Below, one piece after another: positions 12,275 to 34,170 of a stretch of 64,000 nucleotides of DNA; the first letter of the stretch is position 1; each line of letters starts with the position of its first letter. The notes beneath the pieces were generated by a model. It searched no databases and had not been told where the DNA came from. It saw only the letters and a program-made list of their open reading frames with translations. Location: IMG/VR virus record IMGVR_UViG_3300028392_002123; one strand, 5' to 3'. The position numbers and the translations under genes were made by a program. This DNA is from a virus (lineage: Duplodnaviria > Caudoviricetes).

Positions 12275-13183
12275 ATGAACATGGGAAATATTAAAGGCTA
12301 CTACGAAGATGATCCTTCAAGGGTATTTAGAACCGGTATGATGGATCTACTTACTTTTGAAGTACAAGGATGCACGAGGCCGGCACAGACACTCAAAGAA
12401 GAATTGATGCTAGCGGCCAGTGATATATACAATACTGTACCTGATATACACATAGCACTATCCGGTGGTTGGGAAAGTAACGTATGTCTGCATACTTTTA
12501 TGGAAGCAGGATATAAACCCCGGGTAATGATTCTGGAGTTTCCCCGGGGACTCAATGACTTTGACACAGATCCTGCCAAAGAAGCTTGCCGTAGATATGG
12601 CATTACTCCTACCATCGTACCTGTTGACATGTCCTTTCTAGACTTTATCAAAAACGCTGTAGTACCTGTGGTAGAAAAATATCAAACATATACTTTTTTT
12701 CAAAGTTTGTTTGCTTATTACTTGGAAAAAACAAAAATCAACTGCTTGCTAGTAGATAAAGTAGATCTGCGCCGCGATCTAAATCCTAATGGTCAGTGGA
12801 GTTTTATACGCAGTGAAGTAGCTACATGGACTGATCGATTCAACACACTCAACGAAAATAAAGTATTGATGAATTTTTATTGTCACAGTCCCGAAGCCAT
12901 GCTGGCCTATTTAGAACTGCCCACTATAGTCGACTTGATGAATCATCCTAAAAATGGTAAGCTAAGTCTACAAAGTCTCAAACATAAGATCTATCTAGAA
13001 GGCGGATACAATATTCCATTGTTTACACGAACTGTCAGCACTGATAAGATCATTGGCGTAACAGCGGCCTGCGAAGAAAAGATTAAAAAAGACATTGGTT
13101 GGAAAACTAGGATAGGCTACGTAGAGTATCCTAAAATTGTTCAAGCATTAAAAAGTGAAGGTGGAAAATGGCAATACATTTAA
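12275..13183 (+). CDS. PP-loop (adenine nucleotide alpha-hydrolase)-like protein
   Basis: IALSGGWES variant of SGGxDS; similar to 16184 and 26287 ORFs. Confidence 0.55.
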   Translation: MNMGNIKGYYEDDPSRVFRTGMMDLLTFEVQGCTRPAQTLKEELMLAASDIYNTVPDIHIALSGGWESNVCLHTFMEAGYKPRVMILEFPRGLNDFDTDPAKEACRRYGITPTIVPVDMSFLDFIKNAVVPVVEKYQTYTFFQSLFAYYLEKTKINCLLVDKVDLRRDLNPNGQWSFIRSEVATWTDRFNTLNENKVLMNFYCHSPEAMLAYLELPTIVDLMNHPKNGKLSLQSLKHKIYLEGGYNIPLFTRTVSTDKIIGVTAACEEKIKKDIGWKTRIGYVEYPKIVQALKSEGGKWQYI

Positions 13184-13779
13184 GAAGATTGGTAACAGAA
13201 GACTTGGCCGTTATAGAATCTATGGCCAAAGAAAAATTAGTAATGACCAATACTAAAAGTTTTGTATTTGAAGAAAACGGTGTTGCTGTGTTCAAATACT
13301 TTGTCTTACCAGATTCAATCTATGGCGCAGAAAAAATGCGCTGTTATGGTTACTTTGAAGATGATAAATTATTGGCTGTATTGGGTTTGAGAACATTTGA
13401 TCAATTCCCCAGTTGGATCCTTAGCTTTATTGTCACTAGTAACGACTGTAAAAATAGCATTGACTGTATTAAATCACTGCTAGAGTACACCATAGAAGAA
13501 CAGGAAAAACTGGGATTCTATCAATGGTTTACAGTGAGTAAATTGGAAAAGTTTGAGGTTTGGCAAAAACTATTTAAAAAGGCCAGACAGAAATACCATC
13601 ACTATGTCTATGCAAGAATCCCAGCTAATACCATGCCTAAATGGTTGAGTCACTTGAGCTTTAGCCGCGGAAAATTGTTTCCTTACGATATAAATATCAG
13701 CATGTACATGGCTAAGAGTTTGTGTACTTCGGACGGCGACGACTCGGATGTCGACGAACGTGACATAGACTTTTTATGA
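13168..13779 (+). CDS. Possible GNAT-fold protein
   Basis: YGYFEDDKLLAVLG...W.LSFIV...LLEY...G pattern; no clear motif A. Confidence 0.4.
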   Translation: MAIHLRRLVTEDLAVIESMAKEKLVMTNTKSFVFEENGVAVFKYFVLPDSIYGAEKMRCYGYFEDDKLLAVLGLRTFDQFPSWILSFIVTSNDCKNSIDCIKSLLEYTIEEQEKLGFYQWFTVSKLEKFEVWQKLFKKARQKYHHYVYARIPANTMPKWLSHLSFSRGKLFPYDINISMYMAKSLCTSDGDDSDVDERDIDFL

Positions 13780-14636
13780 ACGAACAAGAACCAATTAAAC
13801 TAAACAATTTTTTATATTTTGTGCTGTATCCAGCACACTTAGCTGCCTTATTAGGTATTTTTGTATTTCCATTCTACTTTGATTTTGGTATTAAACATGT
13901 TGTATGTTTACTGCTAGGATGGGTACTATTAGCAGGCATAGGTAGTGCTATTACCTTACACAGAGTTGTCAGTCACAGAGCATTAGAACCGCGCCGTGGT
14001 TTTAAACCTGTTATGCTGTGGCTGGCCAGTTTGTGTTTACAGGGAAGTCCTTTGGGTTGGGCCAGTATACATAGAGGCGCACATCATAGACATGCTGACA
14101 CAGACAGAGATCCGCATACTCCGCAAAAAGGTTTTTGGTACAGCTATCATGGTTGGCTCTATGACTGGGCAAATTATTATAATTTTAGATTCAGTGTGGA
14201 CTTGATCAGAGATCCCATGCACATGTGGTTCGCACAGCACTACACTAAGATCATTGCTGTAACTTATATAATCGTGGGATTAATCGACTGGCAAGTTCTT
14301 TTATTCATGTTTATTATTCCTGCTGTTTACAGCCTGCATCAAGAAAGCTGTGTAAACTATTTCTGTCACTTGCCTAATAAAGGTTATAGGAACTTTGAAA
14401 CCAAAGATGACAGCAACAATAGATCAGTTATGGCCTTGTTAGTTTGGGGTCAAGCTTGGCACAACAATCATCATGCCAAGGCCAGTGCCTACGACTTTGG
14501 CACCACTGTTAGTGGTCGTATTGACGAATTTGATCCCACATTATTGTTAGTACCTTTACTAGCAACCAAAGAAAGTAGACAACGTATATTTAAAGCGAGA
14601 GAAGATGCAACTACAATTCCGAACACTAATAATTAA
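13776..14636 (+). CDS. Membrane fatty-acid desaturase (delta-9-like)
   Basis: His boxes LHRVVSH, HRGAHHRHAD..DPH, WHNNHH; TM helices. Confidence 0.9.
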   Translation: MNEQEPIKLNNFLYFVLYPAHLAALLGIFVFPFYFDFGIKHVVCLLLGWVLLAGIGSAITLHRVVSHRALEPRRGFKPVMLWLASLCLQGSPLGWASIHRGAHHRHADTDRDPHTPQKGFWYSYHGWLYDWANYYNFRFSVDLIRDPMHMWFAQHYTKIIAVTYIIVGLIDWQVLLFMFIIPAVYSLHQESCVNYFCHLPNKGYRNFETKDDSNNRSVMALLVWGQAWHNNHHAKASAYDFGTTVSGRIDEFDPTLLLVPLLATKESRQRIFKAREDATTIPNTNN

Positions 14637-15153
14637 TCCTGATAATTGGATTATTGGTGAGCATACTAACAAAGATGCTATGATATGGGCGATATCAGAT
14701 CGTCCTTGGTATAATCTTAGAACTTATACTATTAAAGATGAATTTTCTTTGCCCGCACAGTTAAAAACCAATAGCTGGACGCAGGTAGAAATTAATAGGG
14801 AAAACACTTGCCCACAGGATGTGCTGAGAGAAATTAAATTAATCGAAGCTAGAATTAAATTCTGTGCGGAGTTATACTATCGCTTACAAATAGCACAGGA
14901 AAATCTAGGACTCAGCATGACTAATTTTACCTTGGTGCAATTACATGAATATCTCGTCAGCAAAGGACTAGTTGAAGGAGAAGCCAATCCAGATGCCAGC
15001 ATACAGTACGAAAACAAACTGAGATTATTACAAGATTTAAACAACATCAAAAATCAAGTTGTTGCTTCTTTAATGTCTGCGGCAACCATTGAAGATTTTG
15101 CTCAAACAAGAGCACTCATGGAACGCCTATTCTTCACTAACATATTACTATGA
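14605..15153 (+). CDS. Hypothetical helical protein preceding PP-loop ATPase
   Basis: Overlapping start/stop with both neighbours; positional analog of 33547..34170. Confidence 0.6.
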   Translation: MQLQFRTLIINPDNWIIGEHTNKDAMIWAISDRPWYNLRTYTIKDEFSLPAQLKTNSWTQVEINRENTCPQDVLREIKLIEARIKFCAELYYRLQIAQENLGLSMTNFTLVQLHEYLVSKGLVEGEANPDASIQYENKLRLLQDLNNIKNQVVASLMSAATIEDFAQTRALMERLFFTNILL

Positions 15154-16187
15154 ATTTAATTTACTATCATCCGATTGCATTACCCGTAGAACAAAAAGGC
15201 ATATTTCATGCCTGTGTTAATCCACTAATTTCTGTCATGGATAGAACTGATAATCGTTGGCCCGCAAAGCTAGACTATGTCAATTTATTCCCCATGCCCG
15301 CGGTATCGGCGGATCCAACACCTAACTTCATGGACACCAGCATAGCCAGGATAAAAGAATTAACCGAGCATGATCAACATGTTAATCTACTGTGGAGCGG
15401 TGGCATTGACAGCACGTTTATCATGACCATGATGATTGACTTGGGCATTGCTGATCAACTGTTCAATGAAGGTAGATTGACCATTGGTTTAAATCAGGAC
15501 AGTATCAAAGAGAATCCAGTGTTCTATGAAAAGTTTATCAAAGCACGTTATATGAAATGTGTGGTGCAGGCCAATCATATTTTAATTAATCCCAAACCCG
15601 ATCAAGTTATTATCACAGGCGAAATGGCCGACAACTTGGTAGGTAGTTTAACTATGAAAAGTTGTGTAGATTTTTACAACGACTTCAGTGTTGTTCATAA
15701 ACCATATGCCCAGGCCATTGATTGGATGACACGCAATTTAAAAAAGCCTGAATACAAGGATAATCTGCAAAAGTTTTTAGAAAGTGCTATTGCTAAAAGT
15801 CCAGTTGAATTGACCACATGCCATGATCTACTTTGGTATTTGAACTTCAATTATAAATGGCAAGCAGTTAACTTTAGAATTGTCAGCCATTGTCGGGATC
15901 AAAACACTGGAAATTTATTGATTAAAAACTTAAAACATTTCTTTAACACTGACAGTTTTCAACAATGGAGTCTCAAAGAAGGACACTATTTTGAAGGCAG
16001 TAATTGGGGAGATTATAAAAAGGTCATGAAGAAACAAATCTATCAAGTTACCAGCGACTTAGAATATTTTAAGAACAAGACCAAACATCCTAGTTTGCCT
16101 GCATTGCTACGCTATAAAGATACCTTTGACTTTATCTACGAAGACAATGGCAGTTACGTGTTTACTAAAAAACAGATTCAATCATGA
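15150..16187 (+). CDS. Asparagine-synthase-C-like PP-loop ATPase (no glutaminase domain)
   Basis: LLWSGGIDST, TGEMADNL.G, FF...FQQWS. Confidence 0.75.
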   Translation: MNLIYYHPIALPVEQKGIFHACVNPLISVMDRTDNRWPAKLDYVNLFPMPAVSADPTPNFMDTSIARIKELTEHDQHVNLLWSGGIDSTFIMTMMIDLGIADQLFNEGRLTIGLNQDSIKENPVFYEKFIKARYMKCVVQANHILINPKPDQVIITGEMADNLVGSLTMKSCVDFYNDFSVVHKPYAQAIDWMTRNLKKPEYKDNLQKFLESAIAKSPVELTTCHDLLWYLNFNYKWQAVNFRIVSHCRDQNTGNLLIKNLKHFFNTDSFQQWSLKEGHYFEGSNWGDYKKVMKKQIYQVTSDLEYFKNKTKHPSLPALLRYKDTFDFIYEDNGSYVFTKKQIQS

Positions 16188-17095
16188 ACTTTGGCATAGA
16201 AGAAACCACAGGCAAGTTCTACGTAGAACATGTTAGCTGTAGTCGTCAACCTGGCACACTTCGCGAAGAAAGCGATCGTCGTGCCAGAGAGATTTATTCT
16301 AACAATAATAAAGTAATGCTGTGCCTCAGCAGTGGCCTAGACAGTCAAATAGCATTACACAGTTTTCTCAGTCAGGGCATACCTGTTGAATGTGCCTTTT
16401 TACGCTTGGGAGGATTCAACGACAATGAATATGAAAACTTACAAGTATTGGAAAAGAAATACGGATTTAAAAGTCATGTCATTGAACTAGATCCCAATGC
16501 TCGCAGAGAAGAATTAGAAGCACTGAGTCCAGTACTGGACGCACATTTAAATCACTGCATACAACATCTATTCGTCAAAGAGCTACCCCGAGACTATGAC
16601 ATTGTACAAGTACTGCATGATCCATGGTTGGTAACTAGAAAAGATACTGCACAACACTATGTTTATCAAAGTTATTATGATCCAGAGATAGCTCGCTATC
16701 GTGCATTGTCTGCCATACCCGATCGCACAGGTCGTATAGAAATGTTTGGCAACAGCAGTGAATATTTTGTCAGCAGTATCAATGACGAATTATTTCACTA
16801 CTTTCTTAAGAGTTGGGTTTACTATGATGGCAATGGTTTCAAGCTCTACGACCTCAAAGTCAATGACGTTCTGCGCTATGAATACTATATCAAACCCATG
16901 CTGTATGCCAAGCACTGGGGCGATGAACTAATTTACTTTCCCAAGTTCTCGGGCTATGAAAACATTGATTGGCTCTACAAAAGTGTACGTAAAATACAAA
17001 AAGAAAAACAATGCTTTATGCTCTGGCAGGATTTGATCAAACACTATCTTGCTTGTACGGGTACTAGTAAAAGATTCTACGAAGTTAAATTTTAG
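16184..17095 (+). CDS. PP-loop-like protein
   Basis: LCLSSGLDSQ; paralog of 26287..27225. Confidence 0.6.
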   Translation: MNFGIEETTGKFYVEHVSCSRQPGTLREESDRRAREIYSNNNKVMLCLSSGLDSQIALHSFLSQGIPVECAFLRLGGFNDNEYENLQVLEKKYGFKSHVIELDPNARREELEALSPVLDAHLNHCIQHLFVKELPRDYDIVQVLHDPWLVTRKDTAQHYVYQSYYDPEIARYRALSAIPDRTGRIEMFGNSSEYFVSSINDELFHYFLKSWVYYDGNGFKLYDLKVNDVLRYEYYIKPMLYAKHWGDELIYFPKFSGYENIDWLYKSVRKIQKEKQCFMLWQDLIKHYLACTGTSKRFYEVKF

Positions 17096-17101
17096 TCATA
17101 A

Positions 17102-17125
17102 AAAAAGGACCTTTCGGTCCTTTTT
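17102..17125. terminator. Intrinsic terminator closing the enzyme island
   Basis: AAAAAGGACC-TTTC-GGTCCTTTTT. Confidence 0.8.
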
Positions 17126-17139
17126 AAATAAGTAGTTAT

Positions 17140-17337
17140 ATGATTACTGTAGAACAAGCTATTCGAGATATGTACCAGCAGTTAGGCGGGCAACCGTATG
17201 CACAGCGTTTTTATTCCACTACAGTACGAGAGTTTACAGCCAGTCACTTTCATGTCAAAAAGAACTTTGAAACCGACACGATGTTGACTGGCAAACAACA
17301 AGAGTTTGTCCATGATAAATGTCAAACAAAAGGATAA
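17140..17337 (+). CDS. Small hypothetical protein
   Basis: 65 aa ORF after a TAAATA motif. Confidence 0.45.
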   Translation: MITVEQAIRDMYQQLGGQPYAQRFYSTTVREFTASHFHVKKNFETDTMLTGKQQEFVHDKCQTKG

Positions 17338-17399
17338 CGTTATGTATTCAACACAAGAAGAATGCCCAATCTGCGGCGGCAATCATAAAAAATAATAAA

Positions 17400-17603
17400 T
17401 TATTCTTTGATAATTTTTATCAATTTAATTAGATCCCTGCGAATAGCATATTCTGTAGAACCAACACGAATATGCAAACAACCCCGATTTTTTCTTAATA
17501 CTGTTAACAGTCTATCGGGCACAATGCCCAAAGACTTTAGTCTTTCATGATCAACTGAAATGATTCGACATTGTTGATTTGGTTTTAAATCATCTATGTT
17601 CAT
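17400..17603 (-). CDS. feoA: FeoA-like SH3 protein
   Basis: IDDLKPNQQCRI...RLKSLGIVP...V.V..TEYAIRR. Confidence 0.65.
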   Translation of the reverse strand: MNIDDLKPNQQCRIISVDHERLKSLGIVPDRLLTVLRKNRGCLHIRVGSTEYAIRRDLIKLIKIIKE

Positions 17604-17606
17604 ATA

Positions 17607-17683
17607 TGGCGCGGTGGACGGGACTCGAACCCGCGACCCTCGGCGTGACAGGCCGATACTCTAACCAACTGAGCTACCACCGC
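17607..17683 (-). tRNA. tRNA-Asp(GTC)
   Basis: Cloverleaf, loop CT-GTC-AC, encoded CCA. Confidence 0.95.
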
Positions 17684-18311
17684 TAATCTTCTTAACTCTA
17701 ACTAAATCCAGACTGGGATTACACACTGGAATTCTAGCGTATTTAATATAAAAATTCTTTAATAATTCTAACTCTATGTCCTTGCACAAACTAGGATGCA
17801 TGGGCAAGTATGCTTGATAACATTTATCAATTAACTTAGCATCAAAGTTTTCTTTAAACGCAGTACCACAACCATAGGGACTAAGTCTATTATTTCTAAT
17901 AGTTCCTTTAAAGTCTGTGCGTCTGCCTAACATACAATTACGTGTTACTGCTCTACTTTCACCAATGTAAATAACCTGTTCAGATAAAAAATCTGCAGGT
18001 CCCGGGGGAACAGTATCTTCAAATAGTCCATATATATAACAACCTGGATGTGCTTTGTCAAAGCCCCAGGTCCTGGACCAAGGTTCGTCTATGTGATGCC
18101 AAGCTGTAAAATTTTTAAAGTCTGGCCTTACAGTAGTTTTTAGTTGTGTGACAAAATATTCAACGCCACTTAACTCAGCACACTTCCGTAGGCTATAAGC
18201 CAATTGTTCTATGTTAGAATCTTTGAATATATCATAGAGTTGGTCTTCGGTTAATCCGTGATTACCTGATCCCATTCTAATATTTTTAGCAAGTATCTGT
18301 GCGGCGTTCAT
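17661..18311 (-). CDS. GIY-YIG-like nuclease; 3' end overlaps tRNA-Asp
   Basis: GCYIYGL...VIYIGES...R...E pattern. Confidence 0.55.
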   Translation of the reverse strand: MNAAQILAKNIRMGSGNHGLTEDQLYDIFKDSNIEQLAYSLRKCAELSGVEYFVTQLKTTVRPDFKNFTAWHHIDEPWSRTWGFDKAHPGCYIYGLFEDTVPPGPADFLSEQVIYIGESRAVTRNCMLGRRTDFKGTIRNNRLSPYGCGTAFKENFDAKLIDKCYQAYLPMHPSLCKDIELELLKNFYIKYARIPVCNPSLDLVRVKKISGGSSVG

Positions 18312-21368: not shown

Positions 21369-21460
21369 TGGTACCCCCGGCGGGAATCGAACCCACATGA
21401 ACCAATTATCTGTTGCTTACGGGATATAAATCCGCCGTTTTACCGTTAAACTACAGGGGC
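21369..21460 (-). tRNA. Atypical tRNA-Ile(TAT) with 22-nt variable arm
   Basis: Acceptor GCCCCTG/CGGGGGT, normal D and T arms, loop TT-TAT-AT, CCA. Confidence 0.7.
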
Positions 21461-22407: not shown

Positions 22408-22482
22408 TGGTGGTGATAGTTGGATTTGAACCAACGACCGGCCGCGTATGAAGCGGATGCACTACCACTGTGCTATATCACC
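22408..22482 (-). tRNA. tRNA-Met(CAT), probably elongator
   Basis: Loop TT-CAT-AC, paired 1-72, CCA. Confidence 0.88.
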
Positions 22483-23482: not shown

Positions 23483-24127
23483 TTACTTGACAAAATTTAC
23501 TTCTATTTTTTGTTTTGGAAAAGTGATGTAGTTGAAGTTTTCATTGACTTGATGCTGTGTGCGTTGTTTGTTTGGATCAGGAAATCCAATACCCAGTAAC
23601 AATAGCACTCCGCCTTCAGTGCCCAGAACTTTTTGTACTTTTGGGCCGTCGAAACAACCGCAGTAGCCAGTGGAATAGCCTAGCAAGTTCGCTGTAAGGT
23701 TCAAGTATCCAGATGCAATGCCCAAGGAGACTTCTCTGTCATTGTACAAAGCGTCGGGCACTCTTTCGTTGTCTTTTTCTAACCATGCCATTTGATCATT
23801 GCGATGTACACCTTCGTGTAAAACTGGTGTGACCATTTGATCTTCAAAAACCACTAACAAATTTGCCAATGTTTGTGTGTTTGTTTCGACAATATTTTTT
23901 TCCCTGTTAACTGTAAATCCATTGGTTAACCCATGTATAGTTTCAATGATATTTCTGTTAGTTATGAAATGACACTTATAGTAAGCTACGTTTTGTTTAC
24001 TGGGACATTGTGTAACTGCTGATACTAGTGTATCTAGATCTGCTTGCGGAATAGACTTAGTCAAATCCCAATTACGTTGGCAATGTTGACTTTTTTCAAT
24101 TATGGTTTCGATGTCATTGTTTGTCAT
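23483..24127 (-). CDS. Nitroreductase family protein
   Basis: SQHCQRNWD...QCPSKQN...ANLLGYSTGYCGC. Confidence 0.75.
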   Translation of the reverse strand: MTNNDIETIIEKSQHCQRNWDLTKSIPQADLDTLVSAVTQCPSKQNVAYYKCHFITNRNIIETIHGLTNGFTVNREKNIVETNTQTLANLLVVFEDQMVTPVLHEGVHRNDQMAWLEKDNERVPDALYNDREVSLGIASGYLNLTANLLGYSTGYCGCFDGPKVQKVLGTEGGVLLLLGIGFPDPNKQRTQHQVNENFNYITFPKQKIEVNFVK

Positions 24128-24138: not shown

Positions 24139-25056
24139 TTAACTAATATCTAATTTGTTATTTACAATGAAGGACATCAAAGATTTATTAGATCTCAGCA
24201 CCGTATTAGTCATCGATGATTCGGTGGATCCCACCGGCATCAGTCCTAGATTAAATACAGTTTCTTTAAATTCTTTATTTTTAAAAACACTGATTGCATC
24301 ACTGACAATTTTTTCTTTCATTGATTTACTCATTGATTTGGCTACCACTAAGCAAATATAACTTTGGTAAGGAAAAGATTCTTTAAAATATTTGTCCCAC
24401 GTAAGTATGTTATCTCCCATGTCGTGGCTGGCAAATAATATACTAACACGGCTGTCTCCGATAAAAGGTTTGACACTTGAATAGTTGCCAAATGTACAGT
24501 CTACTTGCCCTGCTAGAACATCCATGGCGCCTTTATTACCTCCACTGGGATAAGGAACGATAATGTGTTTTCCCTGAGCACGTACAAACAATGCTTCAGT
24601 GGCAATATGTTCTGAGCTACCATAGCCGTTGACTGCAAAACTTAGAGATTTTTTTGTGTTTAAAAACTCGTTGAACGTTGTGATACCCAGACCAGCTCTG
24701 CAAGCTAACAAATTAGGAAGTACAGCCACTGTTCCTAAAATTTCTAAATCTCGTTCAGTGTCGTATTCTAAGTCTTTATAATTTAAAGTGTTAGTGACAT
24801 AAATCTGTGGCATAGTGGCCATGAGCACACTTTCACCTTTGAGTACTTGTTTCATTGCCAGTCTGCCGGCCGCACCCGGACGATTCATAACAATATAATC
24901 TTCTATTGAGAGATTCTTGACTATCAGTCTAGTAATTCTATCACTGGGACCGCCAGGAGCATGATGCACAGTATACTCAATAATCGATGCAGGCTTTGCA
25001 CAGACAGAGAAAATTACCAGTGATATCACTAGTAAAAATTTAATTGTATTCTTCAT
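24139..25056 (-). CDS. Bug/TctC tripartite tricarboxylate transporter solute-binding protein
   Basis: Signal peptide, PGGPSD..TR, NRPGAAG, H.A.E, VPY..GG...DVLAGQVD. Confidence 0.85.
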   Translation of the reverse strand: MKNTIKFLLVISLVIFSVCAKPASIIEYTVHHAPGGPSDRITRLIVKNLSIEDYIVMNRPGAAGRLAMKQVLKGESVLMATMPQIYVTNTLNYKDLEYDTERDLEILGTVAVLPNLLACRAGLGITTFNEFLNTKKSLSFAVNGYGSSEHIATEALFVRAQGKHIIVPYPSGGNKGAMDVLAGQVDCTFGNYSSVKPFIGDSRVSILFASHDMGDNILTWDKYFKESFPYQSYICLVVAKSMSKSMKEKIVSDAISVFKNKEFKETVFNLGLMPVGSTESSMTNTVLRSNKSLMSFIVNNKLDIS

Positions 25057-25079: not shown

Positions 25080-26240
25080 TTAAGTTGCATACTGCGGCAA
25101 CAGGCCTGGTATTGGACCTAAGTCATAAAACTTATGGAAATGTTTTAAACCATCCCCGCTGTCATTGACAAAATCAGACAAGGTAGTATTGACATATTCA
25201 ATGCCCTCTCTCCAAATATTAACAGCCTTTGTGTGGGAGTATCCGTCTTTGAACCATAAATCGAATTCACTGTACCAGTCTGATGTAGATTTATCTGCTT
25301 GCCACCAATTGGTATCCCATGTTGAATATATCACACTTCTTAGCACTCGTTCGTGAATCAAACGAACTTTTTCATGTGTGATGTTGGGTGCATACCAGTG
25401 TTCTTGCATGTGAGGATTGGCCGCCAAATATTTTTTAATTACATGCCCCTGCTTTATCAATAAAGGAACACAGTCGGGGCTCCAATAAAAGAATTCAGCC
25501 ATGGCATTTGGATATTCTCTAAAATGCTCAGCTACTGTATTTTGATTAGCGGCACGATCTACAAAGCGCATCAATAGTTTACCATCGGCAATGGCTACCC
25601 TGGGTTTTTCAATGCCGATTATCATGCATATCTTTTTATCTTTATCGAATTGTTTTCTCACGTCTGCTAGAGCCAGATAATTGAAACGTGTGGCACCTGC
25701 AGGATTTATACCTTCGCGTTTGGTAAGAACCCAACTAGCATCTCCAGTGCCTTCCATAAAATCAAATAAATGATCACTTAGGTCAGCCACAGTAATTTTT
25801 GTTTTAGGTATCAGCGGTGCAATCTCTTTTAACCTAGGCATAGTCTGCAGATAGTGTTCTGCACCAGCGTTTTTTGCATCCATGTTTGCAGGATTTAAAT
25901 CGATGAACTGTTTACTGGCTTTTTCAAAATGATTAACAACTATTTCATCTACGTGCAGGCCTTGACGCACAAAGCTCATTAGAATATTGTTACTGTCTGC
26001 TCCGCCACTATAACTTATCATAACATAGTCATATCGTTCTCGTAGCTGTCGAGCTCGTCGATTATATAGTTCATCCAATGATTCTTCGGGCTCAACAGCC
26101 CAGTTATAAGAATCGAATACTCTGTCATTAAAAATCCAATTAACTGGTTTATTAACTTGAGTACTATGTAGACATGCTAAAATTTTTGAAGTGAATTCTT
26201 TGCCATCGCAGACATAGAATCCTAACTCTCTGTTGATCAT
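25080..26240 (-). CDS. PP-loop ATPase-like protein
   Basis: ISYSGGADSNN, GIEKP, FFYWS. Confidence 0.65.
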   Translation of the reverse strand: MINRELGFYVCDGKEFTSKILACLHSTQVNKPVNWIFNDRVFDSYNWAVEPEESLDELYNRRARQLRERYDYVMISYSGGADSNNILMSFVRQGLHVDEIVVNHFEKASKQFIDLNPANMDAKNAGAEHYLQTMPRLKEIAPLIPKTKITVADLSDHLFDFMEGTGDASWVLTKREGINPAGATRFNYLALADVRKQFDKDKKICMIIGIEKPRVAIADGKLLMRFVDRAANQNTVAEHFREYPNAMAEFFYWSPDCVPLLIKQGHVIKKYLAANPHMQEHWYAPNITHEKVRLIHERVLRSVIYSTWDTNWWQADKSTSDWYSEFDLWFKDGYSHTKAVNIWREGIEYVNTTLSDFVNDSGDGLKHFHKFYDLGPIPGLLPQYAT

Positions 26241-26286: not shown

Positions 26287-27225
26287 ATGAAATCTGGATT
26301 TGAAAATAACAAGTTTTACGTCGAATATACCAGCCCTGGCCGGAAGATTGGTAATATGCGCGAAGAGCTTGATCTAGCGGTTAAAACAATTTCCGATTCT
26401 AGTGGCGACAAGTTACTGTTAGGTCTTAGCAGTGGCTTGGACAGTCAAGTAATACTACACAGTCTACACGAACAAGGTTTGCCATATACCTGTGCATTTT
26501 TATACATGCCAGGATACAATGATCATGAATACAACAATGTAAAAGTTTTGGAAAAGAAATATGGTTTCAATGCATTGATAGCTGAAATCGATCCTGCCAA
26601 AGAAAAAGATGAAGTATTAGACCAAGCCTATTCTCAGCACATACTTCCCAATCATTTCATGCATAAAAAGTTTTTATCATTGTTGCCCGCGGACATGGAT
26701 TACTTGAACGGTATCGAAGGACCCGACATTGTGATGAATGAAGAATCTGGTAAAAGATATATCATGGAGGCCCATTGGAATTTTGAAAATACTAGACTAA
26801 GAACATTGCGTAGCTTAGATAGGTCAGGCAAAGTATTAAACATTGATCGTAACGAAACCAGTGAAGCGTTCTTACTCAGTATAATCAACGATGCTGTATT
26901 CAGAGGTTATATCAACAGTATTCGTTATATTTTACACAATGACCTTGTTGACGGATCAGGTAAAAAGCCGGGCATTATATTCAACTACAATTATTATATC
27001 AAACCCATCATCATGGGAAGATACTGGGGTCATGAGCTATTGTATTTCCCAAAATCTATGGGCGTGGAAAAAATAGATTGGATTATGAACTGTCCCATTA
27101 AAAGTACATATAGTCGAGATGTTGTTCACACTGAATATTATACTCTGAGAAAATTCTTGTTACAAGATAAAGTAGATGTACTGAGAATGGAAGACAAATT
27201 GCCTACATCAGAGGCCCACAGTTAA
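26287..27225 (+). CDS. PP-loop-like protein
   Basis: LGLSSGLDSQ; paralog of 16184..17095. Confidence 0.6.
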   Translation: MKSGFENNKFYVEYTSPGRKIGNMREELDLAVKTISDSSGDKLLLGLSSGLDSQVILHSLHEQGLPYTCAFLYMPGYNDHEYNNVKVLEKKYGFNALIAEIDPAKEKDEVLDQAYSQHILPNHFMHKKFLSLLPADMDYLNGIEGPDIVMNEESGKRYIMEAHWNFENTRLRTLRSLDRSGKVLNIDRNETSEAFLLSIINDAVFRGYINSIRYILHNDLVDGSGKKPGIIFNYNYYIKPIIMGRYWGHELLYFPKSMGVEKIDWIMNCPIKSTYSRDVVHTEYYTLRKFLLQDKVDVLRMEDKLPTSEAHS

Positions 27226-28140
27226 TTCTTCTACAATCTGTTTAACTGGTTTAATACTAGTAATATGATCTATTGCACCACCAGCAAAGACGTGTCCTTC
27301 GTTGGGACTTTGAATACCTTTTGCTAGTCCGTATGTATTATTTTCTATGTCAAGAGCAGTTTTACTAAACAAAAAACCACTTTGGTTTGCTGTTCCTATT
27401 TTTACAGTTTCCGAGTAGGATGATTCTAACATTTTCTTTTTAGTTTCCAGCGACACAACTGATTCTTCCGACACCGCAAAAACTGTGCCGAGACTGACAA
27501 TATTCGCACCTGCAGAAAGATGTTCTTTTATTCCCTGACTGTCATATATTCCGCCTTGTGCTATAATAATCCAATTTGGTTTTAACAAACGTAAAGCACG
27601 TATAGCTTCTACTAGATCAAATGTTGTCGAAGAAACTCTACCTGCACCTTTATCACCTTTGAGTATGATACCATCTAAGGAATTCATAACATTTGAATTT
27701 TTATTCAAATGTTCGATCACAGTTTCAAATGAAAGGAATTTACCTAGTACCTTAGTTCCATTTTCTTGAACTTGTTTTAATAATCTAGGAAAACGTGGAT
27801 CTGTGACAAAGTAGTTGTCAAACATTTCTATGTACGCTGGCTTTAACTCTAAGATAATTTTAAATGTTTCTGTGGAATCAGTGAAAATAGGTGTGTTAAG
27901 TCCTAGTATAAAATCCGAATCACCTACTTTGTTTATATAGTATGTTAGATGTTCTCTTAGAACTTTTGGATCGTATATAAAAGTAGATCCTGTTTGAACA
28001 GTATGATTAAATGTAACAAAACTGGGATAACATCCTGTTTCTTTGACTGCCAGTGCCAACTTGACGTTGGACACAGTGGTCATCCCGGAACAGATAATGG
28101 GATACTTAGAATTAAAATTATTTTGATGATCTGTGTACAT
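27208..28140 (-). CDS. Nitronate monooxygenase / FabK-like FMN oxidoreductase (start moved to MYTDHQ)
   Basis: PIICSGM, G..GAG, IIAQGGI, GA..V.LGT.F; TATAAATA at 28148-28155. Confidence 0.75.
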   Translation of the reverse strand: MYTDHQNNFNSKYPIICSGMTTVSNVKLALAVKETGCYPSFVTFNHTVQTGSTFIYDPKVLREHLTYYINKVGDSDFILGLNTPIFTDSTETFKIILELKPAYIEMFDNYFVTDPRFPRLLKQVQENGTKVLGKFLSFETVIEHLNKNSNVMNSLDGIILKGDKGAGRVSSTTFDLVEAIRALRLLKPNWIIIAQGGIYDSQGIKEHLSAGANIVSLGTVFAVSEESVVSLETKKKMLESSYSETVKIGTANQSGFLFSKTALDIENNTYGLAKGIQSPNEGHVFAGGAIDHITSIKPVKQIVEELTVGL

Positions 28141-28176
28141 ATGAAAATATTTATAGCACACTATCATCTATAATAT

Positions 28177-28253
<77 letters not shown>

Positions 28254-28261
28254 ATTTAAAT

Positions 28262-28471: not shown

Positions 28472-28491
28472 GATAAACCTTATTAAAAAAA

Positions 28492-28750: not shown

Positions 28751-28752
28751 TT

Positions 28753-28840
28753 TGGCGGAGCATGTAGGAATCGAACCTACTCACCCATTGCTGAATGACA
28801 GATTAGCAATCTGTTGCCTTAACCGGTCGGCCAATGCTCC
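28753..28840 (-). tRNA. tRNA-Ser(GCT)
   Basis: Loop TT-GCT-AA, long variable arm, CCA. Confidence 0.95.
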
Positions 28841-28847
28841 TTAAACT

Positions 28848-28931
28848 TGGTGCGAGAGGCGGGACTCGAACCCGCATGCCTTTCGACGGGAGATTTTAAG
28901 TCTCCTGAGTATACCATTTCTCCACTCTCGC
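28848..28931 (-). tRNA. tRNA-Leu(TAA)
   Basis: Loop CT-TAA-AA, long variable arm, CCA. Confidence 0.95.
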
Positions 28932-28998
28932 AATAAAACTATTATAACAGGTTATTTATATGTTGTCTACTTCTTTTTTTATTTAATTTAAAATAATT

Positions 28999-29076
28999 TG
29001 GTGGGCCCCCGGAGAGTCGAACTCCGCACCAATGGATTATGAGTCCACTGCTCTAACCAACATGAGCTAGAGGCCC
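28999..29076 (-). tRNA. tRNA(CAT), Ile2 (lysidine) type likely
   Basis: GGGCCTCT start, loop CT-CAT-AA, resembles ileX-type bodies; CCA. Confidence 0.8.
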
Positions 29077-29083
29077 GTAACTT

Positions 29084-29470
29084 TTATGCTACGAGATTTG
29101 CAATCATTTTATAATGATTCCAAGCTTCTCGCACACTTTCATTATCTGTAACAGGACTTGGTGCAATGTCATACCAAGTGTCTACTAGTCGATGATTCCT
29201 TATCCATTTGTCTGCACCAACAGCCCTGGGTTGATGTAATTTTCCATCATTGAAAAGATTAGTGGCCAACGCTTTGGCATCTTCAATGCTGTGATCACTA
29301 AAGTCATATGTCGAATAAGGCGGATTGTAATAGTACTCAAAGACTACATCCATTAACCTATCCACAGTAGGACACATTGTATTACTTACAATGAAAAGCA
29401 CTTCATCATAAGAAACATCTTTGTCTAAAATGCTTTTAATGCATTTACCTAAGCTAGTTCCGATTTTCAT
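29084..29470 (-). CDS. Hypothetical phage protein
   Basis: ORF track; tightly packed minus-strand run. Confidence 0.6.
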   Translation of the reverse strand: MKIGTSLGKCIKSILDKDVSYDEVLFIVSNTMCPTVDRLMDVVFEYYYNPPYSTYDFSDHSIEDAKALATNLFNDGKLHQPRAVGADKWIRNHRLVDTWYDIAPSPVTDNESVREAWNHYKMIANLVA

Positions 29471-29642
29471 TTGTATTTGTATGTTTTAGTGTCAACAAGA
29501 ATAACCACGCCTGCAAATAAAAACATGCAACCGTGTGCGGTGTTTCCAATAAGCAAAGAGTTGATTCCAGAAATAATATTAAGTCCGCTTATTGTATAAC
29601 CGATTGATTTACGATTATTGTTAAACCATTCGAAAAATTTAC

Positions 29643-29831
29643 TCATTCGATTTCCTTTTCTAATTCATGCGATTGAAGTACCATGTCCACCATACTGCTA
29701 TGGCAAGTAGGACAAAACGCCACTGGTAGTATACCAAAGTAACCTAGTACGCCGCCTTCGTCTTCGGTAAATTCACAACTGCATACATTACATTTATGCA
29801 CGTCACCCACATGATCAAAGCCCTTAATCAT
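29643..29831 (-). CDS. Small Zn-ribbon-like protein
   Basis: CNVC...CPTC. Confidence 0.5.
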   Translation of the reverse strand: MIKGFDHVGDVHKCNVCSCEFTEDEGGVLGYFGILPVAFCPTCHSSMVDMVLQSHELEKEIE

Positions 29832-30151
29832 ACTGATACTCCGAACTCTGCTTCCAGTTCTTCATCACTGTAAAAGAATCCCTGGCCACGATCATATTTG
29901 TTCATAGACAATTGGTCAAATGTTTCTCCGTCATAAAACTTCTTAATTACCATTCGCCATCGTTCTTCGGGATAATCGACAAGTTCAAATTCATCAATCC
30001 GGCCGTAGCCATCGTAGGTACCTGTAATGCGATCTCCGTTTTTAAACAGTACTACCACCTTGCTGGCAAACGCCCATGATGTATTTACAACTGCGGTATC
30101 GGCCATCACCGGCTTGTCTGATTTAGCGCAACGCCAACTAAAAAATCCCAT
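29828..30151 (-). CDS. Hypothetical phage protein
   Basis: MGFFSW.CA...G.YDGYG; coupled start/stop. Confidence 0.6.
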   Translation of the reverse strand: MGFFSWRCAKSDKPVMADTAVVNTSWAFASKVVVLFKNGDRITGTYDGYGRIDEFELVDYPEERWRMVIKKFYDGETFDQLSMNKYDRGQGFFYSDEELEAEFGVSV

Positions 30152-30288
30152 TACTTAACTCCTAAATATTTTTCAAGATACTGCAATTATAAAGATAATA
30201 ACTGCCGCGATTGGATGTCCTAAGATTAAAGCCATCATTGCAAGAATAGTACTATAGAAGGCTTTATCATCTGACATGTTTTACTCAC

Positions 30289-30684
30289 TTATAACAAAAT
30301 AGGTTCATGAACAGGAGTACCCTTAAGAATCAGCATAACTTCATCCTCTTGAGAAAATACCAGTTTATACTTTTCTAAAATTGTTCTACGAGCTGTATCA
30401 TCGGCCTTGGTCCACGCCTTAACTCGTTCATAGGAGCCATAACACTCTGCTGGCACATGATCATTTATCCAACCTGCCAAAGCCTTAAATGCTCGAACAG
30501 TATTACTAGGATGACTACTTGCCATGGCTCCTAGGAAATCATTGGCCAAGACAGCAGTAAAACAGCTACCTGGAGACCATCCAAAAATCAAGTAGTTATA
30601 CATGGGATGGGCAAACTCTTTGTCCACTTCCCATTCGGCAAATGTATGCAGAATTCGATTTCGACTATGTTCTGAGATTTTCAT
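30289..30684 (-). CDS. Hypothetical phage protein
   Basis: ORF track; coupled. Confidence 0.6.
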   Translation of the reverse strand: MKISEHSRNRILHTFAEWEVDKEFAHPMYNYLIFGWSPGSCFTAVLANDFLGAMASSHPSNTVRAFKALAGWINDHVPAECYGSYERVKAWTKADDTARRTILEKYKLVFSQEDEVMLILKGTPVHEPILL

Positions 30685-30878
30685 TTAACTAGATTTTCTT
30701 TTATACTAAATTCATAGCCGCCCATGCTACCTGCATAAGTTCCTTGTTTGTATATCAGCTTGATCCTTACGGTGTTGACTGCTACATCCATAAAAGATTT
30801 TTCTTTAAAACTTAACACATGACATTGTACTTTCTTTCCGTTGTCTGTGCAAGTAAGAGTAAGTTCTTTATCAATCAT
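30681..30878 (-). CDS. Hypothetical phage protein
   Basis: ORF track; coupled. Confidence 0.55.
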   Translation of the reverse strand: MIDKELTLTCTDNGKKVQCHVLSFKEKSFMDVAVNTVRIKLIYKQGTYAGSMGGYEFSIKENLVK

Positions 30879-31338
30879 TTTCGTCCTCGTTTTCCCAAGA
30901 TTCTTGATTGTCTGCTACACCAAATGCATCATCGATCTCTTCGGGAATCTGTTCTCTTGTTTCTGCAGATGTGGCCGGAATTTCGTAGCAGTCGTCGACA
31001 CCATCGATAAACCTACCACAAAAATTTGCTCCAGGTTCATAGTACATTGCATCTACCTTGATGCCTTGTTCTTGGGCAGATTCGTATGCAGAAATAGGCG
31101 GACTCCATGCACTATTAAAATAGAAACTAATCCACTCATCACCTTCTTCCCGAACTTCTGCATTTACTTCCCACTTTGTACCCCAGTTGGCTACATTCCA
31201 ATCGTACCAGTTATCTTCCTCTGAAGCAGGCCGGGGAGCCAGGACACCCAGTATGTTACCATCAGGTGCATCTTTAAGTTTTTTAATCTGTTCTTTGCTA
31301 CCATAAAATGTAGCAACATTATCACACCAATTTGGCAT
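30871..31338 (-). CDS. DUF1281/YubB-like ferredoxin-fold protein
   Basis: MPNWC.N, WYDWN..NWGTKW, F.SAWSPP, YYEPG..FCG. Confidence 0.7.
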   Translation of the reverse strand: MPNWCDNVATFYGSKEQIKKLKDAPDGNILGVLAPRPASEEDNWYDWNVANWGTKWEVNAEVREEGDEWISFYFNSAWSPPISAYESAQEQGIKVDAMYYEPGANFCGRFIDGVDDCYEIPATSAETREQIPEEIDDAFGVADNQESWENEDEND

Positions 31339-31347
31339 ATCGATTCC

Positions 31348-32013
31348 TCAAACTCTTTTAACACGGGTCAGCCAAGTTTCTTTGGCACCAGTGCGATTGT
31401 TAATTTCTTGTTTCTTAACAGCGCCTTTGACACGAATTTTTTCTCCCACAGGAAAAACGCTGGCATCGTGCGCTGTGGTAAATTTGATAACATTCATTCC
31501 GTCTGTTGCAGTATTGATATAGATATTATAGTTTCTACTGTAAATACTGTCAATAAGTTCGACTGCCAATTCCTGTTTACTGCCAACAGCACCGATATAT
31601 TCGCTGGTTGATGCCAGCGTCTGTTGCTTTTCGGTTTTAGCTTCTTTGATTAGATCTTTACGATATGTTTTTGGCAATGCGGCCATGCAGGCCACATCAA
31701 ATTTTGACACTTCTTCTTTGGCCACAATATTAGCAATGGTATCCAAGAAACCATTTTGTGTTCCGCCAGTAAGGGTTCGGAAAAGCAGGCCTTTAAAATG
31801 TTCGGCTAACTTAGCGCCAAATTCTTTGTCTTCTGGTTGAATCAATTCGGGTTCAGCCAAAAGCTGGTAGGCAATAACTTTGTTAAAAGTAAATTGAGTT
31901 GAAGAATATGAGTTTTGATTGTAATATTCTTGCAGATTGACTCGATCTGCACCACAGACAGCGGCCCAGGCAAGTTCAATGGGATATGTGGTTTGTTTAA
32001 GATTGGAAGGCAT
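31348..32013 (-). CDS. Hypothetical protein, possible C-terminal OB fold
   Basis: Behind sigma70 promoter 32048-32076. Confidence 0.55.
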   Translation of the reverse strand: MPSNLKQTTYPIELAWAAVCGADRVNLQEYYNQNSYSSTQFTFNKVIAYQLLAEPELIQPEDKEFGAKLAEHFKGLLFRTLTGGTQNGFLDTIANIVAKEEVSKFDVACMAALPKTYRKDLIKEAKTEKQQTLASTSEYIGAVGSKQELAVELIDSIYSRNYNIYINTATDGMNVIKFTTAHDASVFPVGEKIRVKGAVKKQEINNRTGAKETWLTRVKRV

Positions 32014-32047
32014 TAAAAAATCCCCGCTTGTTAACTACAGTACAAGT

Positions 32048-32076
32048 ATTATAGCACGACGGGGATTTTCTGTCAA
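32048..32076 (-). promoter_or_regulatory. sigma70 consensus promoter
   Basis: TTGACA-17-TATAAT; spacer complementary to the downstream RBS region. Confidence 0.85.
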
Positions 32077-32091
32077 TTATTGACTATTTTA

Positions 32092-32397
32092 TCAAACTGT
32101 AGCAGTTGTCTGCACCATAGTGATACCATTAGCGGCATTGTATGCGTTGCGAGACTCGCGTTGTGCTACGATGACTGGATCATTGCTGAATGTGTTAAAT
32201 TCAGCTTCAGATATCCATGTCCATACAATGTTCAATGATAAGCCGTCTGGGCTAACTTCTGTTACAATATCACTGATTTTACCAGTATTTTTATAAGTCT
32301 CTAGTACGTGTTGAACATAAGCGTCTGGAACAACAGACATATGAAACACTACAAAAGCATCTGGTCTTGTAAATACATTTTTAACTTGAAAGCTCAT
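32092..32397 (-). CDS. Small hypothetical protein downstream of PP-loop ATPase
   Basis: 101 aa; ATAAATA and GGGGA SD upstream. Confidence 0.65.
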   Translation of the reverse strand: MSFQVKNVFTRPDAFVVFHMSVVPDAYVQHVLETYKNTGKISDIVTEVSPDGLSLNIVWTWISEAEFNTFSNDPVIVAQRESRNAYNAANGITMVQTTATV

Positions 32398-32425
32398 TTT
32401 ATTTCCCCTTAAGGTCTAAGTACAA

Positions 32426-33550
32426 TTATTTATCTAAAAAGTCATTATCAGCTGTATAAAAGCTCATAACATCTATGTCGTTATAAAGTATGAAATCACT
32501 GTCTAATGCTATGGTTCTTCTTTTCAATGCCATTACTTTGTCCAAACTGAGTTTCTTTAATTTTGCCATGTATTCTTGCCCAATTAATTTCGAAACATAC
32601 TGTTTGGCAGTCCACTTGTATGTATCAAATGTCTGCAAGTTTTTAGGTTCTTTATTGTTCATTGACCATAATTGAAAATCTATACTGTCAAAAAATGGAA
32701 TAACTGAGTAATTTTCTCTGGTAGATAACGCATACGTTCTATCTTGTATATTGTTATAAGTATGTATTCTATATTTTACGTTCACCCATTTACAAGCGAA
32801 ACCATACCACCATGTCATGGTCCAATAGGTTTTTTCTTCTGAAGGACAAGTGGACATTAATTTCATAAAAGCCGAAGCCCATTTTCTAGCAGATCTAGGA
32901 GAGAAACCGGAATATTTTGTAAACATATCATATAAAAATTCTTCGTCAACTATAAAGTCGGATAAATCTTTACCAGTTACCTGCGACAGTTCGTTGACTG
33001 CTTTTAACAAGATCATGTTACCGTACAGTTGGTCGTTGAGTTCGCCATTGATATAAATTGTATCGGCTTTTAATGTAGCCAAATCAAATTCTTTGCTGTT
33101 AACCACATTAAAATTTGGCCGAATAAATTTTTCCCACATCCAAGGATTTTCAATTATTGATTCATTGCTCATCATGATGTTTAATTTTTTACTGGCTTGG
33201 TCAATACCCATATAGTTAATAAAACTAGTTAACATCACACTACTGTCTATGCCACCGCTGTACATTAAATTTATTTTTTTATCTTCGCTTTGATTTACCA
33301 AGTCCTTTACACGACTCATAGCGGCTTCTTCATAGGTTATGTTAGTGTCAATATACGCGGGTAATTTACACTCATCTGGAATATAAATTTCAAAAGGAAA
33401 TTTTACTGCACCAGATCTATCTCCAATACAGGTAAAATTATCAGTGAATTTTTTACCGAATAATTCTAAAAAATCAGTGACATCGTTTTTACCGATCTGT
33501 TTGTCCTGCATTAAGACATACATAGTATCGTACATTAATATTTTTTTCAA
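32426..33550 (-). CDS. Asparagine-synthase-C-like PP-loop ATPase
   Basis: LMYSGGIDSS, NGELNDQLYG, FFD..DFQLWS, YKW.AK; paralog of 15150..16187. Confidence 0.75.
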   Translation of the reverse strand: MKKILMYDTMYVLMQDKQIGKNDVTDFLELFGKKFTDNFTCIGDRSGAVKFPFEIYIPDECKLPAYIDTNITYEEAAMSRVKDLVNQSEDKKINLMYSGGIDSSVMLTSFINYMGIDQASKKLNIMMSNESIIENPWMWEKFIRPNFNVVNSKEFDLATLKADTIYINGELNDQLYGNMILLKAVNELSQVTGKDLSDFIVDEEFLYDMFTKYSGFSPRSARKWASAFMKLMSTCPSEEKTYWTMTWWYGFACKWVNVKYRIHTYNNIQDRTYALSTRENYSVIPFFDSIDFQLWSMNNKEPKNLQTFDTYKWTAKQYVSKLIGQEYMAKLKKLSLDKVMALKRRTIALDSDFILYNDIDVMSFYTADNDFLDK

Positions 33551-34170
33551 GATGCTCTTCCCATTAGTCTAAACCTAATTTGTTCAACCATTTTTAGTAT
33601 ATCTTCACGAGTGTTGGCCGCGTTAATTTCTTTTATTAAACTATCCACATGTCCTTGTGTTTTAAGAATAGAGTACTTTCTACTTTCTACTTTAAGTCTA
33701 ATTTCTTTTTCCGCATCAGCTACAGGCAAGCTAACACAAGATGCATATTCGATTAGCATGTTTTCATTAGTCAATGCTTCTTCTAATACATGAACCGCTT
33801 CTTGATTTATAAAATTATCTTGGAAGTATCCGTAAAGGGTAGCATCTGCAACAAGATATAAAAATGTAAACATTCCTTTTCTTCCAACTGCCAATGATTT
33901 TCTTTTTTTATAATCAAGGGATAGTTGGTCGTCTGGTATAACTGTAGGACTGCCATCATTGAGTCTTATACTAACTTCATCAAATTTTCTCCAATTATCT
34001 CTACTCCAAATAACTGCTGATTGAAATTTTATTGAATTGTCACTTAATGTTTCAACTTTGGAGTCTAGAATTCCAATGGCTGTGGCTTGAGCGACTCTGT
34101 AATCTCGAGTTGATGTTAAAATACAATCCTCTATAGGATCGATTACAAAGTATCTTATTCCGGTATCCAT
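33547..34170 (-). CDS. Hypothetical helical protein preceding PP-loop ATPase
   Basis: Start MDTGIRY after terminator 34186-34207. Confidence 0.55.
   Translation of the reverse strand: MDTGIRYFVIDPIEDCILTSTRDYRVAQATAIGILDSKVETLSDNSIKFQSAVIWSRDNWRKFDEVSIRLNDGSPTVIPDDQLSLDYKKRKSLAVGRKGMFTFLYLVADATLYGYFQDNFINQEAVHVLEEALTNENMLIEYASCVSLPVADAEKEIRLKVESRKYSILKTQGHVDSLIKEINAANTREDILKMVEQIRFRLMGRAS

Follow-up and report, generated by a model that had tools for sequence, protein, structure and literature searches.

A predicted AsnB-type enzyme family of aquatic phages is encoded with a separate partner protein

INTRODUCTION

Why would a virus carry six small, stand-alone PP-loop proteins, and why are two of them encoded with a companion gene? 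The question is raised by a 64,000-nucleotide stretch of viral DNA (Duplodnaviria; Caudoviricetes; IMG/VR record IMGVR_UViG_3300028392_002123), hereafter called the window. The PP-loop SGGxDS binds the pyrophosphate of ATP, and adenylating domains of the AsnB type form amides not only in primary metabolism but also during the synthesis of beta-lactam and hydroxamate antibiotics and of lasso peptides. The initial annotation of the window, made from the sequence, proposed an uncharacterised phage ligase family with a dedicated partner that might choose the substrate. Here, we analyze one of the families, family A, together with the gene that precedes it. Our verdict is that this pair represents an undescribed, partner-coupled form of the AsnB-type adenylating ligases.

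RESULTS AND DISCUSSION

Six PP-loop proteins in three families

The window was scanned in all six frames for the motif S[GS]Gx[DE][ST] in open reading frames (ORFs) of at least 100 amino acids. Exactly six PP-loop ORFs were found, the same six that the initial annotation had listed, and they fall into three families: A (ORFs at 15150 and 32426), B (12275, 16184, and 26287), and C (25080). A1 (15150..16187, + strand), a predicted AsnB-type stand-alone synthetase-domain protein of 345 aa, carries the loop SGGIDS and a second motif, TGEMADNLVGS. The second A-family enzyme, A2 (32426..33550, - strand; 374 aa from a TTG start), has the same SGGIDS loop and matches the A-family hidden Markov model with an E value of 5.6e-101. 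Among the B-family proteins, B1 (12275..13183, +) has the variant loop SGGWES, and both B2 (16184..17095, +) and B3 (26287..27225, +) have SSGLDSQ. B3 is divergently oriented from C (25080..26240, -; 386 aa), the member of the third PP-loop family, with the loop SGGADS. The grouping into A, B, and a third type, as first annotated, is backed by BLASTP, which gave 28% identity over 243 aa for A1 and A2 (E 5e-20), 39% over 276 aa for B2 and B3 (E 7e-54), and 26% over 116 aa for B1 and B2 (E 8e-10), as well as similarity between B2 and C (E 7.5e-6).

The six proteins are 302 to 386 aa long and have zero Pfam matches at an E value of ≤0.01; therefore, they contain no glutaminase domain, as had been annotated, and the N-terminal Ntn glutaminase domain (Cys1) of AsnB proper is missing from all six. 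None of them reached the gathering threshold of PF00733, for which their relatives gave faint or sub-threshold matches only. NCBIfam returned only PP-loop matches far below threshold. With PHROGs, weak "QueC-like" matches were obtained, the best for B2 at 3.7e-7 and none at threshold, and PADLOC reported a weak QueC match for B2 only, which leaves a defence system unsupported. Among cultured phages, the region had no megablast match, and the sole tblastn match was Pseudomonas phage Cygsa01. The stretch has been recovered in DNA runs of freshwater metagenomes; RNA runs were none listed.

A partner gene directly precedes family A

Next, the genes upstream of A1 and A2 were analyzed. P1 (14605..15153, +; 182 aa) precedes A1, and P2 (33547..34194, -), of the C1 subfamily introduced below, precedes A2. 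In both modules the start of the A gene overlaps the stop of the upstream partner by 4 nt (14605-15153/15150 and 33547-34194/33550), confirming the coupled upstream ORF of the initial annotation. The A1 stop also overlaps the B2 start by 4 nt, pointing to translational coupling, and the end of a desaturase gene runs 32 nt into P1. P2 measures 215 aa from a GTG or 207 aa from an ATG at 34170; the ATG is the more likely start, fitting both the N-terminus of the family and the end coordinate annotated earlier.

P1 and P2 have no BLAST similarity to each other, and direct hhalign comparison of P1 with P2 or with the C1 family detected no relationship. From 84 related loci, we then collected the ORF that precedes each A gene. 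Almost all of these ORFs are 200 to 245 aa long and end -4 to +10 nt from the A start. They cluster into C0 (36 sequences), C1 (18 sequences, joined by P2), and smaller groups, and phmmer places P2 with 20 C1-type upstream ORFs. By hhalign, the P1 subfamily (27 sequences) aligned with C0 at 96.7% (E 3.6e-10, 171 columns), and a partner cluster from Candidate Phyla Radiation (CPR) bacteria and Bdellovibrio aligned at 99.7% both with C0 (E 5e-27) and with C1, which contains P2 (E 2e-25). As a control, the three partner subfamilies were compared with ten unrelated neighbour families, giving at most 2.5%. As judged from these profiles, P1 and P2 belong to one partner family and are homologous via the intermediate clusters.

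Among the phage loci retrieved with the enzyme as bait, a partner lies directly upstream of 57 of the 79 distinct A genes, and 8 more lie in tandem arrays, behind another A gene. Viewed from the other side, A comes directly after 59 of the 60 distinct partner genes in these loci, the sole exception being separated from A by a second partner gene, and directly after all partner genes (17/17) in genome contigs. A further survey was baited with the C0-type partner, which removes the ascertainment bias of enzyme baiting. A was found directly downstream in 42 of 43 loci, that is, in all 42 that could be tested, the 43rd being truncated by the contig end. From the partner's side, partner and A are thus an obligate two-gene unit, with near absolute linkage. 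The dedicated partner proposed at the outset is borne out by these counts, as is the co-occurrence of partner and ATPase, the partners being homologous at the profile level and strictly linked to the enzyme rather than non-homologous and unlinked elsewhere.

The distance matrices of partner and enzyme are strongly correlated (Mantel r 0.94, 0 of 999 permutations, 76 distinct pairs); at the sequence level, this shows joint inheritance without shuffling and nothing beyond it. The partner diverges faster, with a mean identity of 20% versus 33% for the enzyme.

Variations of the module were also observed. In some phage contigs, the whole partner-A module occurs in tandem copies, or two partners precede one A (loci L046, L054, L062, and L073; L066:1195-2480), and five tandem A-like genes without partners were seen as well (L079:3732-9717).

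The partner resembles a non-catalytic subunit

An alignment of 52 partner sequences has zero invariant columns and zero columns with ≥90% conservation. The AlphaFold2 (AF2) model of P1 (pLDDT 88.9) consists of a small N-terminal beta domain (residues 1 to 65) followed by a four-helix bundle. A PDB-wide search with this model by the structural method VIA found generic helical bundles only (Z ≤7.5), the AFDB clusters gave weak DUF4376 or tail-assembly-chaperone-like rows (E ≥0.07), and a structure atlas returned only the protein's own viral family (TM 0.74). Pfam, NCBIfam, and PHROGs left the partner family unmatched. With no conserved residue and uninformative fold matches, the partner looks like a non-catalytic subunit. 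Prediction of an A1+P1 complex scored 0.00, which gives no verdict and weighs neither way.

The strict one-to-one linkage and the co-divergence could also be read as signs that the partner is itself the substrate, its carboxylate being adenylated and modified by A. A hydrophobic C-terminus, F-x-x-[ML]-L-[LM], is conserved in the P1 and C0 subfamilies and would suit this idea. However, the motif is absent from C1, including P2, the partner alignment offers no invariant residue, and a protein consumed stoichiometrically would be an uncommon substrate for such enzymes. We consider this explanation highly improbable.

Family A has the predicted fold and the PP-loop of the AsnB synthetase domain

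Family A has 80 relatives in a protein collection clustered at 90%, none of them named, and relatives are encoded on at least 478 viral contig stretches. Across 23 aligned sequences, SGGIDS, R32, S118, E121, W229, W273, K290, K294, K310, and S315 are invariant, and G157, E158, D161, and G165 are conserved in at least 90% of the sequences. A second conserved motif, [IV][TS]GE[MH]AD[NQ]L[FV]GS, resembles by eye residues 346 to 358 of Escherichia coli AsnB (LSGEGSDEVFGGY, read from the gene), a segment that bears the catalytic Glu348.

The AF2 model of A1 (pLDDT 93.3, pTM 0.92) comprises the synthetase domain only, plus a short N-terminal extension. It was searched with VIA, independently of Foldseek, against 48,161 PDB representatives. 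As seen, the top five matches are all AsnB-class synthetase domains with Z scores of 11.8 to 8.8, namely, TsnB9 (7ylz, Z 11.8), human ASNS (9b6c, Z 10.8), beta-lactam synthetase (1jgt, Z 10.0), carbapenam synthetase (CarA; 1q15, Z 9.8), and E. coli AsnB (1ct9, Z 8.8). The next PP-loop folds, with Z scores of ≤8.0, were TilS/MesJ, APS/PAPS reductases, GMP synthetase, and LarE. Foldseek against PDB and the AFDB clusters gave the same AsnB-class result, the best AFDB cluster being an unnamed "asparagine synthetase domain-containing protein" (TM 0.87). Overall, by modelled fold and motifs, family A is a member of the AsnB synthetase-domain class.

The cysteine content of the three families was also evaluated. 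No cysteine is conserved in A, B, or C, the top column fractions being 0.30, 0.56, and 0.27, respectively. The conserved catalytic, Fe-S, or Zn cysteines of the sulfurtransferases and QueC (MnmA, TtcA, ThiI, NcsA, LarE, and QueC) are absent; therefore, thiolase, LarE-type, or QueC-type chemistry is unlikely. The initial annotation had mentioned TilS, TtcA, MnmA, and QueC among the known users of the fold, and for all three families a tRNA thiolase or QueC-like function loses ground on this evidence.

The match to TilS/MesJ bears on a further alternative, RNA modification, such as TilS-like chemistry on phage tRNAs with the partner acting as an RNA-binding adaptor. The 20 tRNA genes located between and beside the PP-loop genes, two of them with a CAU anticodon, would fit such a role, as would the Z score of 8.0 reached by TilS/MesJ (1ni5) over 143 residues and the presence of MnmA, ThiI, and NcsA among the B-family profile matches in the PP-loop region. 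In Pfam and NCBIfam, the TilS models had no match among the six PP-loop proteins. Nevertheless, the AsnB-class folds score above TilS/MesJ and cover more of the A1 model, and the lack of conserved cysteines makes thiolation unlikely. Moreover, no RNA-binding fold is recognisable in the partner, and in some loci the module stands beside desaturase and transporter genes with no tRNA array. RNA modification is, on this evidence, quite unlikely.

Regarding the tRNA genes themselves, ARAGORN reported an unusually long 92-nt tRNA-Ile with the anticodon UAU plus the two CAU-anticodon tRNAs (21369-21460, 22408-22482, and 28999-29076, all -). One of the latter could be an Ile2-type tRNA needing lysidine.

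A membrane desaturase and oxygenase-like genes surround the module

Upstream of P1, B1 lies in a row of four genes. It is preceded by a 195-aa ORF (11679..12266, +) and followed by a conserved 203-aa ORF (13168..13779, +; cluster 4, found in 36 related loci) and by a gene for an SCD-like membrane fatty-acyl desaturase (13776..14636, +; Pfam FA_desaturase E 8e-18), which matches acyl-CoA desaturase 1 in PDB (4ymk) with an E value of 6e-13. The row [212-aa ORF][B][~200-aa ORF][SCD-like desaturase] is kept in many phage contigs, and B1 is the positional equivalent of its B gene. It is collinear with [partner][A] in the window, L001, L005, L007, and L033, and elsewhere lies a few kilobases off on the other strand. 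The A-then-B order of A1 and B2 is also seen in L007. The 195-aa ORF, for which no Pfam or PDB sequence match was found, probably corresponds to the 212-aa ORF found ahead of B in related phage clusters, as its profile, built with an ORF of L005, aligns with cluster 6 (hhalign 71.5%, E 3.6e-5, 128 columns). Profiles of the two ORFs flanking B1 had no match in PDB. A GNAT assignment for these two ORFs was not relied on, resting as it does on a sub-threshold Acetyltransf_4 match (E 1.9e-4) in 1 of 11 relatives.

Of 55 loci with a partner, 34 have a desaturase gene within 5 kb, versus 2 of 14 partner-less ones, the loci not being phylogenetically independent. The association is present in both partner subfamilies, and C1-type loci have the order [desaturase][49-aa zinc ribbon][partner][A]. 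Genes for ThyX, FA_hydroxylase-family, Asp/Arg-hydroxylase-like, and HxD...H oxygenase-like proteins are also found near partner-A; HxD...H is a signature of Fe(II)/2-oxoglutarate or cupin oxygenases. Host-like DesC genes have been described in cyanophages (PMC5776448), and a search of that text by terms for neighbouring or adjacent genes retrieved no mention of the partner-A genes.

Several smaller neighbours were observed next to the partner. Directly upstream of P2, a small secreted protein with a signal peptide, the motif APSIIGGVIGY, and 4 Cys is encoded (34227..34646, -), whose membership of the module is uncertain. In L070:3009-3341, a secreted His-rich protein with the near-identical motif APVIIGGAIGY is encoded upstream of the partner. 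Between desaturase and partner, five loci contain a four-Cys zinc-ribbon ORF of 49 to 57 aa with an acidic tail (L054:4160-4309, L062:3433-3582, L066:1046-1195, L073:3683-3832, and L050:2653-2826). An ORF of cluster 8 (L024:3770-4300 and its relatives), directly upstream of the C0-type partner, has an invariant H76-x-D78...H152 and two Arg residues and is not named by any Pfam model. In the window, a TauD-family dioxygenase gene (10780-11682, +) borders the PP-loop genes.

AsnB-type domains act in known pathways for ribosomally synthesized and post-translationally modified peptides (RiPPs), and family A might likewise tailor a ribosomal peptide or protein by carboxylate amidation or cyclisation, with the partner as the peptide-recognition element. 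The secreted Cys-containing protein before P2 and its His-rich relative in L070, the zinc-ribbon ORF before the partner in five loci, and the HxD...H oxygenase-like and Asp/Arg-hydroxylase-like neighbours are consistent with this. Nevertheless, no precursor, protease, RiPP recognition element (RRE), or YcaO gene was recognised in the window or the phage loci, the candidate small ORFs vary between loci, and the association with desaturase and FA_hydroxylase would be left unexplained. Pfam scans of the neighbours, with a non-exhaustive search of small ORFs, likewise found none of the lasso families (precursor, leader protease B, and RRE). Peptide tailoring is therefore conceivable, although we regard it as doubtful.

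Families B and C and their neighbours

The altered PP-loop attributed to family B by the initial annotation holds for the copies in the window and a few relatives; most B relatives, however, have the canonical SGGLDSE. SSGLDSQ recurs in L052 and L068, and SGGWES is unique to B1, whose nearest relative has the loop TGGLDSN. Family C is large, with 1420 cluster representatives at an E value of ≤1e-3 and 1068 at ≤1e-10. By hhalign, A and B align at 92.6% (E 4.6e-7) over 227 columns that include the C-terminal K..Y...K region, and C aligns with A at 94.8% and with B at 96.7% in the N-terminal segment and PP-loop only. As suggested by profile comparison, A, B, and C are related, unnamed families.

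In the window, C is adjoined by a gene for a TctC/Bug-type solute-binding protein with a signal-peptide-like N-terminus (24139..25056, -; Pfam TctC E 1.4e-14), next to which lies a nitroreductase-family gene (23483..24127, -; Pfam Nitroreductase E 1.1e-8), given for context only. An NMO/IMPDH-type FMN barrel protein is encoded beyond B3 (27208..28167, -; Pfam NMO E 1.1e-14). Loci baited with C reproduce the window order TctC(-) C(-) B3(+) NMO(-), with a B-type gene in 47, a TctC-type gene in 35, and an NMO-type gene in 28 of 80. In L002 and L064, a TctC-type gene also immediately precedes partner+A. The T4 late-promoter motif TATAAATA is not enriched in the window (9 matches versus 7.4 expected).

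The partner-A pair occurs beyond phages

Partner, A, and B were also found together in genome contigs assigned to CPR bacteria and Bdellovibrionales and in one Polynucleobacter contig. In CPR bacteria, the partner has ~230 aa and accompanies a glutaminase-less AsnB-like enzyme and a second PP-loop gene; no SCD-like desaturase was seen in the CPR loci. The bacterial neighbours encode a solute symporter, AMP-binding enzymes, a cupin, and a PRTase-propeller protein. Family A is thus not phage-specific, and of the uncharacterised phage ligase family first proposed, the uncharacterised adenylating-type PP-loop enzyme stands, with A in the AsnB class by the criteria above, but not its restriction to phages.

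In Bacteroidota, Acidobacteriota, and other groups (L089-L135), about 49 A genes have no partner. These partner-less genes adjoin a 231-aa cupin_2 protein in 26 loci, and the ORF directly before them is of 127 aa or, with a transmembrane helix at its N-terminus, of 164 aa. Both upstream ORFs were considered as relatives of the partner and rejected (≤1.4% by profile comparison).

In Cygsa01 (PP179332.1, L085:3715-5864), two genes annotated as "tRNA-specific 2-thiouridylase MnmA" match the A profile with E values of 5e-32 and 3e-22. No partner-family gene was found among the ORFs that adjoin them. On the strength of the profile matches, the MnmA labels are probably wrong.

A putative carboxylate-adenylating unit

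As described above, the carboxylate chemistry of the AsnB class, the strict linkage, and the neighbouring genes have to be read together. We favour an account in which family A and its fast-evolving, non-catalytic partner form an obligate unit that performs glutaminase-less, AsnB-type adenylation of a carboxylate and yields an amide, the substrate being more likely a small acid or a lipid-like molecule than a tRNA. On balance, we consider this account somewhat probable. The A enzyme would bind ATP at the PP-loop and adenylate the carboxylate by means of its AsnB-like T/S-G-E-x-A-D-x-L-F-G-S motif. Because no glutaminase supplies nitrogen, free ammonia or an amine would then attack the adenylate to form the amide. 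As a subunit, the partner may have a structural or targeting role. The substrate may be a small carboxylic acid or a lipid-like molecule, which is preferred over tRNA because of the desaturase, hydroxylase, oxygenase-like, carboxylate-binding, flavoprotein, symporter, and acyl-activating neighbours.

A more specific and rather unlikely proposal is that the desaturase, partner-A, B, and the flanking ORFs constitute a phage pathway for the synthesis or remodelling of a lipid with an amide linkage (for example, a fatty-acid amide or a lipo-amino acid), with the partner presenting a hydrophobic carboxylate to a soluble AsnB-like ligase. If true, it would add a new type to viral lipid metabolism, one common to the lipid-scavenging CPR bacteria.

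Several observations weigh against the account that we favour. The AsnB class of family A rests on fold and motifs, as no Pfam, NCBIfam, or PHROG model matches at threshold, and a 61-column profile of the GE..D motif had no match in PDB, the likeness of the second motif being one seen by eye. The loops of B1, B2, and B3 are non-canonical, and these proteins may be inactive. The neighbourhood association is phylogenetically non-independent, and phage accessory islands co-locate unrelated genes. Finally, the PP-loop genes flank a tRNA array, which leaves room for an RNA substrate.

Significance and comparison with known systems

A literature search for the partner-A module found nothing specific. 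New here are the double module in one phage, the recognition of two dissimilar partners as one family, the linkage obtained with the partner as bait, the tie to an SCD-like desaturase, and the conserved C/B/TctC/NMO set. Family A would represent a large branch of the AsnB class that is without glutaminase and has gained an obligate partner that is encoded separately and falls in no known family. The presence of the pair in giant aquatic phages, CPR, and predatory bacteria alike suggests that its function is portable and broadly useful. There is no database name for the at least 478 A-encoding phage contigs or for the more than 1400 cluster representatives of C. Knowing the substrate would allow thousands of "hypothetical" viral genes to be annotated and could expose a new viral intervention in the lipid or small-molecule metabolism of the host.

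Family A has in common with the AsnB synthetase-domain class (PF00733; TsnB9 and the beta-lactam and carbapenam synthetases) the PP-loop SGGxDS, the overall fold as modelled (Z 8.8 to 11.8), and, as judged by eye, a second motif like S/T-G-E-x-x-D-x-x-F-G, so that adenylation of a carboxylate and its capture by a nitrogen nucleophile are probable. In contrast to that class, the Ntn glutaminase is gone without a degenerate remnant, an N-terminal extension of ~60 to 80 aa stands in its place, the sequence is too diverged for PF00733, and the enzyme is encoded with an obligate separate partner, which is without a described counterpart.

A PP-loop enzyme with a dedicated second protein is also known from Ctu1/Ctu2 (Ncs6/Ncs2) and TtuA/TtuB, in a manner similar to A and its partner, and in the window PP-loop paralogues adjoin each other as well (A+B and C+B). 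However, those systems are tRNA thiolases with Cys or Fe-S sites, whereas the phage families lack conserved cysteines, and the partner is neither a PP-loop paralogue nor ubiquitin-like.

Lasso cyclases (McjC type) and the C-terminal amidotransferases of thiopeptides likewise combine an AsnB-type adenylating domain with a separate recognition protein to act on a carboxylate. As far as searches show, RRE folds and the partner are unrelated. The precursor, leader protease, and RRE of those systems were not found with the phage module, whose neighbourhood is instead dominated by the desaturase and oxygenases.

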